64,000 nucleotides of DNA from Escherichia coli (GTDB lineage Bacteria > Pseudomonadota > Gammaproteobacteria > Enterobacterales > Enterobacteriaceae), in NCBI RefSeq assembly GCF_003334385.1, contig NZ_QOWN01000018.1; one strand, given 5' to 3'. This document shows positions 2,998 to 51,341 of the stretch, piece after piece. The position numbers were made by a program, and so were the translations under genes. Within the stretch, counting starts at the first letter, position 1, and each line of letters begins with the position of its first letter. The notes beneath the pieces were generated by a model. It was given only the letters and a program-made list of their open reading frames with translations. It had not been told where the DNA came from and did not search any database.

Positions 2998-3257
2998 AAG
3001 TGCATCCAAAACGAATTTGCGAGAGAAAGAAAATGGCGTGTCGGAGAATGAATTGCAACACAAAAATAACAAATTGAATGATATTTATTTTTATTTCAAT
3101 AATTTTGAATTAATAATGAAAGAATCTTCATAAGTTTAGTGGGTTCAGCATCAGAGATGTCTGGTGAGTGCTGTAGAAGCAGGAATAATCTCATTCAATT
3201 TTTCACGCTAAATGAAAGGGAGATTAAATATTTGTCAGTTTATGTCAGTGCGGAAAA

Positions 3258-43313: not shown

Positions 43314-45503
43314 TCAGAATTGATACGTGCCGGTAATGCTGAAATTACGCGGTGTGCCGTAGACGATAGAACCTTCCACGTTGGTATCGTAGGTTTTGTC
43401 GAACAGGTTATTGACGTTCCCCTGTAACGAGAAGTTTTTCGTCACCTGGTAGCGGGTGAAGAGATCCACCAGCGCGTAGCTACCTTGCTCGGCGCGGAAG
43501 GTGCCATACGGCGTCACGGTGTCGGTATACACGCGATTTTGCCAGTTAACACCACCGCCGACCGTCAACTCTGGCATGACAGGCAACCGATAGCTGGTGA
43601 ACATTTTAACCGTGGTGCGTGGCAGATTAGGATTAACGGCGTTTCCTTCGTTATCCTCTGCAATATAGCGCGTTGCGCCAAATGTCAGCTGCCAGTTGTC
43701 GGTAATTGCGCCGTTGAGTTCAAATTCCACCCCTTTACTGACTGTCCCATCCACCGCTTTATAGGCGGTTTCGCCGTTGCTGCCGGGGATAGGTGTACCG
43801 GTGGACTGAGCGACATTATCCTGCTCAATACGGAAGATGGCTAACGTGGTGGTCAGACGGCTATTCATCCAGTCCGATTTCAGACCCAGCTCGTAGTTGT
43901 TACCGGTGATTGGAGCCAGATATTTGCCTGAACTGTCACGATCATTTTGCGGCTGGAAAATAGAGGTATAGCTGGCGTAGGTCGACCAGTTGTCATTGAT
44001 GTCAAACACCAGACCAGCGTAAGGCGTGGTGTGGTTTTTCTCCATGCTGTAAGTCAGCGTATCAACCCGCCAGTTGGTATAACGTGCGCCGAGGATCAGA
44101 TGCAGCGGATCGGCAAGGGTGACACGAGTGGCAGCATATAACGATTTCATATGTGTGGTATCGTCCTGCGCCAGGCTCTGTGGTGACCAGTCGGTTTGTG
44201 GGAAATTGCCATTAAAGTTGTAGAAACTGCCAATTTCATCCGGGAAGATGTTGGCCCATGAACTGAAGTAACGATTGTTTTGTTTGCTGTAACTGCCACC
44301 AAACATTAGATTGTGCTGACGACCAAACAATTCATAACTACCGTCAGCGAACAAATCCAGCGCATCAACTTTACGTTTGCCACTGTTCCAACCGGTGCCG
44401 CCGACATAATCAAAGCCAGGTCCATAATTACTGTATGGCCCAACCAGCATACCATCCGCTTTGTTTACATAGGCATCGACATACATCATTTTGCTGTCAA
44501 ATTCGACTTCAGAGTGGGTGGCATTCAGTGTCGCTTGCCAGGTATCAGCAAACTGCTGCTTCAGGGTCATAAAGACCTTGTTGATCTCTTTATCGTTGTA
44601 CGCCCAGTCAGGTGCGGTACTGCGTGCGCGATCGTAACTGTTGCTGCTGCCATCAGTATTCCAGCGCGGTAAACCGCCCCAGGTAGGGCTATTAACATCA
44701 ATGCGCTGATATTCGTAACCGGCTGAAAGCGTCGTAAGATCGCCTAAATCAGCATCGACAATGCCCGAGAAGAAGGTCTTTTCACTGTTGTAGCGGTCCA
44801 GCCATGAGTCGTTATTCTGGTAGCCGCCGACAATTCGCGCGCGGATTTTACCGTCTTCGGTGAGTGGGCTTTGTAAATCCGCCACATACCGTTCTTTGTT
44901 CCAGCTACCGTATTCCGCCGAGACATCGCCTTTAAATTCACGACTGGTCGCGTGTTTTCGAACCATATTAATTGCCGCAGATGGATTACCCGTCCCGGTC
45001 ATGAGTCCTGTCGCGCCACGCACTACTTCTACGCGTTCAAAGAGTGCCATATCAGAAAGTGCGTCGCCCAGATTCCAGCGCGATTCAAAATAGGTGGGGA
45101 TACCATCAACCATATAGTTATCGATCTGGAATCCGCGGGAATAATAAAGAGCACGATCGGAATCCGCCTGACTTTTGCTGATCCCCAGCGTGTTTTCCAT
45201 CACTTCGCCCAGCGTTTGTAACTGCTGATCTTCCATCCGCTGCTGGCTAACAATAGTGACCGACTGAGGAATATCACGTTGAGTCATCTGCATTTTGGTA
45301 CCCGCAGAGGTAGACGTTACGCTGTAATCATTTTCGCCATCATCTGGAGCTGTGGCTGAACCCTCAACAATCACCGTTTCTTCAGTGGCTGGTGCAGCAA
45401 AAGCGGCAGAAGGTAATAGTGCCAGTGCTATGCAACCGGCAAGTAGTGACGGTTTGGTGATGGCTTGATATTGATTATCCCTGTTAAATTGTGTTGAAAG
45501 CAT
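43314..45503 (-). CDS. fhuE: TonB-dependent outer-membrane receptor for coprogen/ferric rhodotorulic acid
   Basis: ORF track 729 aa with signal peptide; C-terminal ...TGTYQF. Confidence 0.95.
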   Translation of the reverse strand: MLSTQFNRDNQYQAITKPSLLAGCIALALLPSAAFAAPATEETVIVEGSATAPDDGENDYSVTSTSAGTKMQMTQRDIPQSVTIVSQQRMEDQQLQTLGEVMENTLGISKSQADSDRALYYSRGFQIDNYMVDGIPTYFESRWNLGDALSDMALFERVEVVRGATGLMTGTGNPSAAINMVRKHATSREFKGDVSAEYGSWNKERYVADLQSPLTEDGKIRARIVGGYQNNDSWLDRYNSEKTFFSGIVDADLGDLTTLSAGYEYQRIDVNSPTWGGLPRWNTDGSSNSYDRARSTAPDWAYNDKEINKVFMTLKQQFADTWQATLNATHSEVEFDSKMMYVDAYVNKADGMLVGPYSNYGPGFDYVGGTGWNSGKRKVDALDLFADGSYELFGRQHNLMFGGSYSKQNNRYFSSWANIFPDEIGSFYNFNGNFPQTDWSPQSLAQDDTTHMKSLYAATRVTLADPLHLILGARYTNWRVDTLTYSMEKNHTTPYAGLVFDINDNWSTYASYTSIFQPQNDRDSSGKYLAPITGNNYELGLKSDWMNSRLTTTLAIFRIEQDNVAQSTGTPIPGSNGETAYKAVDGTVSKGVEFELNGAITDNWQLTFGATRYIAEDNEGNAVNPNLPRTTVKMFTSYRLPVMPELTVGGGVNWQNRVYTDTVTPYGTFRAEQGSYALVDLFTRYQVTKNFSLQGNVNNLFDKTYDTNVEGSIVYGTPRNFSITGTYQF

Positions 45504-45589
45504 TTGAAATCTCTTGGTTTATGTTGTCGTCAGGCTCATGCCGGAGGAGGGTGATGAGCGATTATATTTAGTGTGCGAATAATTTTGTT

Positions 45590-45635
45590 TGTAAATGCAA
45601 ATGAGAAATATACGCATTCATATTTGTCATGTAAA
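45590..45635 (-). promoter_or_regulatory. fhuE promoter region with candidate Fur box (imprecise)
   Basis: AT-rich TGCAAATGAGAAATATACGCATTCATATTTG with partial GATAAT-type hexamer repeats; match to the Fur consensus is weak. Confidence 0.3.
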
Positions 45636-45836
45636 CCAAACAGAGAATGTCTTTTCAGCGCATTCGCAGGCAGAAATGGGAATAATGGCGATATATACGG
45701 CAGCAAAACGATTTTTTGCTTAAGAAATCGTGAGTTAAGGTTGAAAGAGCAGGTTTAACTCGACCATACTCTATACTCGCAGTGTGGCGCGGCGTAGCAT
45801 GGCGCAACGCATGGCTATTTGAAAAAGGAAAATGTC

Positions 45837-46196
45837 GTGGCAGAAGAAACTATATTCAGCAAAATTATTCGTCGTGAGATCCCCTCCGATATCGTCTACC
45901 AGGATGATCTGGTAACGGCGTTTCGCGATATTTCGCCGCAAGCGCCAACGCATATTCTGATCATTCCGAATATCCTCATTCCGACTGTGAACGACGTCTC
46001 AGCTGAGCATGAGCAGGCGCTGGGACGCATGATCACCGTAGCGGCAAAAATTGCTGAGCAAGAAGGTATTGCCGAAGATGGCTATCGTCTGATCATGAAT
46101 ACCAACCGCCATGGCGGACAAGAGGTTTACCACATCCATATGCACTTGTTGGGTGGCCGTCCGCTGGGACCAATGCTGGCGCATAAAGGTCTGTAA
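45837..46196 (+). CDS. hinT: HIT-family purine nucleoside phosphoramidase
   Basis: ORF track 45819..46196; start placed at GTG 45837 ([16 protein letters not shown]...), 119 aa; histidine-triad HIHMHLLGG. Confidence 0.9.
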
Positions 46197-49765: not shown

Positions 49766-50036
49766 CGAACGCCCTGCATACACCCCTCACTCTATATCAC
49801 TCTCACAAATTCGCTCAAATAATAAACAATAAACTCTGTTTTTTGATCTCACCCGGTAAAGTCGCCTATCTTTTCAGCAACAAAACTTGATTAACATCAA
49901 TTTTGGTATGACCAATGCACCATTCATGTTATTCTCAATAGCGAAGAACATTTTCATTGCTGTAACCTGTTGTTAATTAAGAGCTATGTTAATAACCATT
50001 AATTAACAATTGGTTAATAAATTTAAGGGGGTCACG

Positions 50037-51341
50037 TTGACTACGCCATTGAAAAAGATTGTGATTGTCGGCGGCGGTGCTGGTGGGCTGGAAATGGCAA
50101 CACAGCTGGGGCATAAGCTGGGACGCAAGAAAAAAGCCAAAATTACGCTGGTCGATCGTAACCACAGCCACCTGTGGAAACCGCTGCTGCACGAAGTGGC
50201 GACTGGCTCGCTTGATGAAGGCGTCGATGCGTTGAGCTATCTGGCCCATGCGCGCAATCATGGTTTCCAGTTCCAGCTGGGTTCCGTCATTGATATTGAT
50301 CGTGAAGCGAAAACAATCACTATTGCAGAACTGCGCGACGAGAAAGGTGAACTGCTGGTTCCGGAACGTAAAATCGCCTATGACACCCTGGTAATGGCGC
50401 TGGGTAGCACCTCTAACGATTTCAATACGCCAGGTGTCAAAGAGAACTGCATTTTCCTCGATAACCCGCACCAGGCGCGTCGCTTCCACCAGGAGATGCT
50501 GAATTTGTTCCTGAAATACTCCGCCAACCTGGGCGCGAATGGCAAAGTGAACATTGCGATTGTCGGCGGCGGCGCGACGGGTGTAGAACTCTCCGCTGAA
50601 TTGCACAACGCGGTCAAGCAACTGCACAGCTACGGTTACAAAGGCCTGACCAACGAAGCCCTGAACGTAACGCTGGTAGAAGCGGGAGAACGTATTTTGC
50701 CTGCGTTACCGCCACGTATCTCTGCTGCGGCCCACAACGAGCTAACGAAACTTGGCGTTCGCGTGCTGACGCAAACCATGGTCACCAGTGCTGATGAAGG
50801 CGGCCTGCACACTAAAGATGGCGAATATATTGAGGCTGATCTGATGGTATGGGCAGCCGGGATCAAAGCGCCAGACTTCCTGAAAGATATCGGTGGTCTT
50901 GAAACTAACCGTATCAACCAGCTGGTGGTGGAACCGACGCTGCAAACCACCCGCGATCCAGACATTTACGCTATTGGCGACTGCGCGTCATGCCCGCGTC
51001 CGGAAGGGGGCTTTGTTCCGCCGCGTGCTCAGGCTGCACACCAGATGGCGACTTGCGCAATGAACAACATTCTGGCGCAGATGAACGGTAAGCCGCTGAA
51101 AAATTATCAGTATAAAGATCATGGTTCGCTGGTATCGCTGTCGAACTTCTCCACCGTCGGTAGCCTGATGGGTAACCTGACGCGCGGCTCAATGATGATT
51201 GAAGGACGAATTGCGCGCTTTGTATATATCTCGCTATACCGAATGCATCAGATTGCGCTGCATGGTTACTTTAAAACCGGATTAATGATGCTGGTGGGGA
51301 GTATTAACCGCGTTATCCGTCCGCGTTTGAAGTTGCATTAA
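50037..51341 (+). CDS. ndh: Type II NADH:quinone oxidoreductase (NDH-2)
   Basis: ORF track 50010..51341; start placed at TTG 50037 ([19 protein letters not shown]..., FAD-binding GxGxxG), 434 aa. Confidence 0.95.

Follow-up and report, generated by a model that had tools for sequence, protein, structure and literature searches.

In the 64,000-nucleotide stretch of Escherichia coli DNA analysed here (the window), fhuE and hinT diverge from a spacer of 333 bp (45504–45836; Table 1). From fhuE to hinT the sequence showed no mismatch to K-12 MG1655 (NC_000913.3) over 2883 bases, and window positions are converted to published coordinates by adding 1116048 (NC_000913.3) or 1115271 (U00096.2). A 933-base query spanning the spacer matched every complete E. 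coli genome (5426/5426), with fhuE and hinT as the annotations. No match was obtained in an Rfam scan of 45300–46000 with E-values up to 1, so that the spacer is without a known RNA element, and a scan of the region for terminators found none. A single σ70-like site was detected on the fhuE strand, with a 17-nt spacer and 10 of 12 consensus matches. Also present are an AT-rich inverted repeat (ACGATTTTTT/AAGAAATCGT, 45708–45731, with 10-nt arms 4 nt apart), which lies mid-spacer between the fhuE and hinT promoter-like sites and is kept within Escherichia but not across genera, and a direct repeat (CGCAGTGTGGCGC/CGTAGCATGGCGC, with a 15-nt spacing) in the presumed hinT leader.

Table 1. Features of the fhuE–hinT region, in window coordinates.
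Feature	Position	Strand	Description
fhuE CDS	43314–45503	−	Ferric coprogen/rhodotorulic acid outer membrane receptor
fhuE 5′ UTR (inferred)	45504–45600	−	~97 nt, given a start ~7 nt past the −10
Fur ChIP-exo region, MG1655, peak P31	45592–45624		U00096.2 1160863–1160895; as tabulated in Dataset 2 of Gao et al. (2023)
Second, overlapping Fur site	45594–45612, centre 45603		AATGCAAATGAGAAATATA; 8.7 bits, offset 6 bp
Primary Fur site	45600–45618, centre 45609		AATGAGAAATATACGCATT (fhuE sense AATGCGTATATTTCTCATT); 13.8 bits (PWM)
−10 hexamer (predicted)	45612–45607	−	TATATT; consensus scan; central in the primary Fur site
−35 hexamer (predicted)	45635–45630	−	TTTACA; consensus scan
hinT promoter-like site	45741–45746 and 45765–45770	+	TTGAAA ... 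CATACT; direct repeat (45778–45805) just downstream
hinT CDS	45837–46196	+	GTG start; divergent neighbour of fhuE

A preliminary description of this DNA, made from the letters alone, expected fhuE to be under Fur control but found that the best Fur-like element in the spacer, placed around 45596–45630, fits the Fur consensus only loosely; it offered as alternatives a degenerate or overlapping site or a dependence on additional factors, and proposed a Fur matrix scan and a Fur ChIP or reporter assay. The loose fit is real. Against the classical 19-mer GATAATGATAATCATTATC the top score in the spacer on either strand was 11/19, reached at 45603–45621, 45597–45615 and 45575–45593, and this is chance level, since 86% of 2000 mononucleotide shuffles of the spacer scored at least 11/19. 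The best scores in 19 other K-12 Fur promoters were 12–17 (median 15), which leaves fhuE as the lowest of the set. Because spacer scores on both strands are at chance level, the match to GATAATGATAATCATTATC was dropped as a criterion. The classical consensus is known to miss proven Fur sites and to call false ones, for example at exbB and exbD (Chen et al., 2007), and it describes Fur specificity badly and is a poor test for Fur sites.

We built a symmetric 19-bp matrix (PWM; consensus AATGATAATCATTATCATT, information 20.6 bits) trained on 19 Fur-controlled K-12 promoter regions from which fhuE was excluded: fepA–fes, fepD–entS, fepB–entC, fhuA, fecA, fecI, fiu, cirA, tonB, exbB, feoA, ryhB, fhuF, sufA, ydiE, yncE, nfeF, sodA and mntH. 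In leave-one-out scoring the training sites averaged 18.6 bits (SD 5.0). The matrix scan settled the question raised by the loose consensus match, with a primary site in the spacer whose score is above chance, only 1.35% of spacer shuffles attaining it, together with a second, overlapping site. At about 1 SD under the average for accepted sites, the primary score falls among those of tonB, fecA and mntH, and it is higher than the 10.1 bits of the weakest site with experimental proof in the 24-site model of Chen et al. (2007). The fhuE walkers at 0 and −6 share their 6-bp phasing with 17 of the 19 reference promoters, and on the plus strand the element can be read in hexamers as AATGCA-AATGAG-AAATAT-A-CGCATT. 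Its downstream half-site, TGAGAAA, is good, and the low score is due mainly to the upstream half-site, which is TGCGTAT in place of TGATAAT. The apparent weakness of the fhuE site thus comes from the poor classical 19-mer, from the TGCGTAT half-site and from a dyad centre that doubles as the predicted −10 hexamer. The need for a −10 at the dyad centre may explain part of the departure from consensus, and only part, given that the T at position 11 is unfavourable to the −10 as well as to the Fur match.

Scores of at least 13.8 bits occur at 3 of 63,982 positions in the window, the primary fhuE site ranking third, and with about one such position per 20 kb sequence alone would not identify it. 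The top match of the window, AATGATATTTATTTTTATT at 3077–3095 (centre 3086; 20.6 bits), lies 88 nt upstream of yceJ (start codon 2998, minus strand), for which Chen et al. (2007) list in their Table 4 a cluster of 20.6 bits and five walkers at yceJ −89, without experimental data. Between v2 coordinates 1088996 and 1160863, and hence at the yceJ site, no peak is given for MG1655 in the ChIP-exo data of Gao et al. (2023); the yceJ site is a strong predicted one. At 50048–50066, within codons 4–10 of ndh (ATG at 50037), ATTGAAAAAGATTGTGATT scores 15.9 bits, above the fhuE site, and weaker matches occur in the ndh promoter region at 49940–49958 and 49985–50003. The same MG1655 table gives no Fur peak for the ndh matches; since one of these outscores fhuE, Fur targets cannot be told at this level by their score alone.

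For fhuE, binding and regulation are on record. The 24-site information-theory model of Chen et al. (2007) scored a fhuE site, overlooked by McHugh's earlier model, at 12.4 bits and U00096.2 position 1160880, which is window position 45609, the exact centre of our top match; the two models agree independently, on this centre and on 20.6 bits for yceJ. In Dataset 2 of Gao et al. (2023), the MG1655 ChIP-exo peak at fhuE is tabulated for iron-replete cells only and is marked as present in Seo et al. too, and the W3110 peak (1163221–1163233) maps to 45596–45608 in the window using the W3110 fhuE start at 1163128; over the nine strains of the data set, the tabulated term fhuE appears eight times. 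The RNA-seq tables of the same study give an increase for fhuE of log2 5.02 (about 32-fold; p = 1.8e-113) in the MG1655 fur mutant relative to the wild type, and of log2 3.0–8.4 across eight gene-bearing strains, with comparable rises for genes with strong boxes, namely fiu (log2 5.5) and ybiX (log2 5.2). A fhuE promoter–lacZ fusion is, moreover, repressed by Fur (Beauchene et al., 2015). The expected Fur control of fhuE is thus confirmed by the fur-mutant RNA-seq and the lacZ fusion, and the proposed matrix scan, ChIP and reporter assay had all been published already, the last two with occupancy and repression as their outcome. The fhuE site with its low score, the binding of Fur to it and the effect on expression are accordingly known from published work. 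A literature search for an in vitro footprint, gel shift or mapped start site at the fhuE promoter found none.

A second ChIP-exo peak, P32 (v2 1161165–1161198), is tabulated by Gao et al. (2023) for both iron-replete and starved cells and as not in Seo et al.; it corresponds to 45894–45927 in the window, that is, to hinT codons 20–31, and is labelled intergenic in the table though within the hinT CDS. Our matrix gave nothing above 0 bits under P32, the nearest match being one of 5.6 bits at 45947–45965. According to the expression table of the same study, hinT is outside Fur regulation (log2 fold change −0.17 in the fur mutant, not significant). With no Fur motif beneath it, P32 was rejected as part of the fhuE control region. 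Some gene labels in the MG1655 sheet of Dataset 2 appear shifted, in that P37 (v2 1309033–1309056) adjoins tonB and is labelled acnA, and the tabulated ryhB peak is ~120 bp off the ryhB Fur box, so that peak-to-gene assignments need a coordinate check.

We next consider how far the element is conserved. A scan limited to one genome for each species gave 54 fhuE loci; 52 were analysed, from about 15 genera (Escherichia, Citrobacter, Klebsiella, Raoultella, Kluyvera, Enterobacter, Leclercia, Lelliottia, Buttiauxella, Mangrovibacter, Pantoea, Rahnella and others) and with FhuE identities down to 55%. The element was present in all 52, at 76–166 nt upstream of the assigned fhuE ATG. Its fhuE-sense 19-mer was AATGCGTATATTTCTCATT in 23 loci, AATGCGTATATTTCGCATT in 21, AATGAGTATATTTCTCATT in 4 and a single variant in each of 4 others, and in 26 of the 52 it was one base off AATGCGTATATTTCTCATT. 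In an alignment of 25 representatives from about 15 genera, identity to E. coli was 95% over 45594–45618 and 97% for each of the −35 and −10 hexamers, versus 49% for the rest of the −35/−10 spacer, 39% for the 5′ UTR, 34% further upstream and 53% for the first ten fhuE codons; the 5′ UTR showed no conserved block across genera beyond the ribosome-binding region. Conservation runs 13 nt beyond the −10, to 45594, which is the edge of the second Fur site, and then drops, a pattern more in keeping with an operator than with a promoter alone. Among nine aligned Escherichia alleles, 45594–45618 was nearly invariant: Escherichia sp. MOD1 alone differs, by a single base (45596). The flanks are polymorphic within E. 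coli, at a few bases in 45587–45592 and at spacer bases 45626–45629, which follow the −35 and read TGAC, CACT, CGTC, CGAC, TGTT, CAAT or TATT in the nine alleles; because of these flanking bases, identity to K-12 over 45585–45644 is complete in only 1332 of 5426 genomes, compared to 5010 of 5426 over 45645–45704. The cross-genus footprint, the overlap of the Fur site with the predicted −10 and the series of operator variants described below are what the present analysis adds to published work.

Some motifs within or near the element were tried and rejected. The conserved GCG ahead of TATATT is not an extended −10 (TGn), the bases being G-C-G and not T-G-n. An NsrR-like half-site (ATGCATTT) could be read in TTGCATTT at 45594–45601, but in Mangrovibacter, Pantoea and Rahnella the GCAT is lost and the Fur-like AT-richness kept. 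The inverted repeat I2 (45601–45611/45620–45630) uses spacer bases that vary within E. coli and was treated as incidental.

That deletion of fur alone brings full derepression, on a par with strong-box genes in the data of Gao et al. (2023), leaves little room for a second factor, a co-repressor, nucleoid protein or activator, which would aid or compete with Fur at a weak site and make fhuE something other than a simple Fur switch. Its attraction lies in the low matrix score, in an upstream half-site whose CG is conserved despite departing from the Fur consensus, and in the palindromic AATGCG-N7-CGCATT of 21 loci, which could suit another dimeric protein. The regulator table of an ExPEC study, however, gives Fur as the sole regulator of fhuE, the spacer is without any other conserved block, and where the downstream part of the block varies, in Mangrovibacter, Pantoea and Rahnella, it is still AT-rich or more Fur-like and does not keep the GCAT motif; a second factor is therefore, in our judgement, very unlikely. 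Still less probable, to the point of being hardly tenable, is that the conserved island is a core promoter only, that Fur acts indirectly through RyhB or another Fur-regulated regulator, and that the matrix match is a by-product of AT-richness. The ChIP-exo peaks tabulated for two strains fall exactly on the element and in iron-replete cells only, and 45594–45606, past the −10, is conserved while the remainder of the −35/−10 spacer is not; these observations run against a bare promoter, even though conservation is highest in the −35 and −10 hexamers and Fur matrices often score on AT-rich promoters, as with the match at the start of ndh.

Altogether, 45594–45618 is very probably the fhuE Fur operator, made up of two overlapping 19-bp sites over the predicted −10 and the likely start, at which Fe2+-Fur would occlude the promoter. 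The sequence match and its conservation come from the present analysis, in vivo occupancy and Fur-dependent expression from the literature, while the −35 and −10 assignments, the start position, occlusion as the mode of repression and how many Fur dimers bind are inferences. The predicted start at ~45600, some 7 nt past the −10, would fall within both Fur sites. In iron-replete cells, Fe2+-Fur dimers would thus bind at the two centres, cover the −10 and the likely start of the σ70 promoter, and exclude RNA polymerase from it; when iron is scarce, Fur would be released and fhuE expression would go up about 30-fold. The placement given in the preliminary description holds, the exact extent being 45594–45618, or 45592–45624 by ChIP-exo. 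As to its two alternatives, the site is indeed degenerate and overlapping, with two 19-bp sites 6 bp apart, whereas additional factors are not needed: this is a degenerate but genuine Fur operator that requires no extra factor. A published matrix model, ChIP-exo and expression data, together with phylogenetic conservation, fill what seemed to be a gap in the regulation of fhuE, and the weak look of the fhuE iron box, correctly noted, is explained and ordinary.

Across genera the operator varies in its half-sites and, with these, in its score: TGAG/TGAG in Buttiauxella and Pantoea ananatis (18.6 bits), TGCG/TGAG in Escherichia, Klebsiella and Kluyvera (13.8 bits), and TGCG/TGCG in Citrobacter, Leclercia and Lelliottia (9.1 bits). 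The 9.1-bit allele, AATGCG-N7-CGCATT, is that of 21 of the 52 loci, in other genera, and Fur control of fhuE in the species that carry it is assumed. In the Citrobacter freundii group (L024, L026, L027, L028, L029 and L065), where the main operator scores 9.1 bits, we found an extra Fur-like site, AATATTAATAATTATCAAG (14.6 bits), with its centre 19 nt ahead of the fhuE ATG (locus position 1501). Locus L030 has a 10.8-bit variant of this near-start site, and Superficieibacter (L070) a 15.7-bit site at −76. The extra near-start site may compensate for the weak main operator in the C. freundii group. The operator series could, speculatively, reflect a tuning of the derepression threshold. A joint reading, in which selection keeps a low-affinity fhuE box whose score sets the iron threshold relative to enterobactin, with the second site of the C. 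freundii group as compensation, is doubtful, and we put it forward as an unlikely though not far-fetched idea. If true, the switch-on of a xenosiderophore receptor would be timed relative to the cell's own enterobactin system by the score of its box. The operator variants that occur naturally in the different genera could also serve to calibrate Fur matrices against measured affinity.

In its architecture the fhuE operator resembles those of fhuA, fepA–fes, fepB–entC, cirA, fiu and ryhB, which are likewise 6-bp-phased arrays of 19-bp sites, overlapping promoter elements (in fhuE, predicted ones), and which, in the data tabulated by Gao et al. (2023), show Fur binding under iron-replete conditions and derepression in the fur mutant. 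It differs from these strong operators in score, since their sites have 18–26 bits and 13–16 classical matches, compared to 13.8 bits and 11/19 for fhuE, and in having just two positive walkers in phase. Closer in score are the accepted targets tonB, fecA and mntH (16.0, 12.8 and 9.7 bits respectively, with 12/19 classical matches); the derepression ratio tabulated for fhuE is, despite its low score, among the larger ones. The 7-1-7 Fur box of Baichoo and Helmann (TGATAATnATTATCA) and the ChIP-exo motif TGAnAATnATTcTCA (Gao et al., 2023) are related definitions of the box: TGAGAAATATACGCA (45602–45616, plus strand) fits 10 of the 13 specified positions of TGAnAATnATTcTCA, and relative to the 7-1-7 box fhuE has one degenerate half-site (TGCGTAT) and a central AT tract that is the predicted −10 hexamer. 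The site found here is the same as that given by the M9 Fur model and the 'Fur binding site clusters' of Chen et al. (2007), with no difference of substance.
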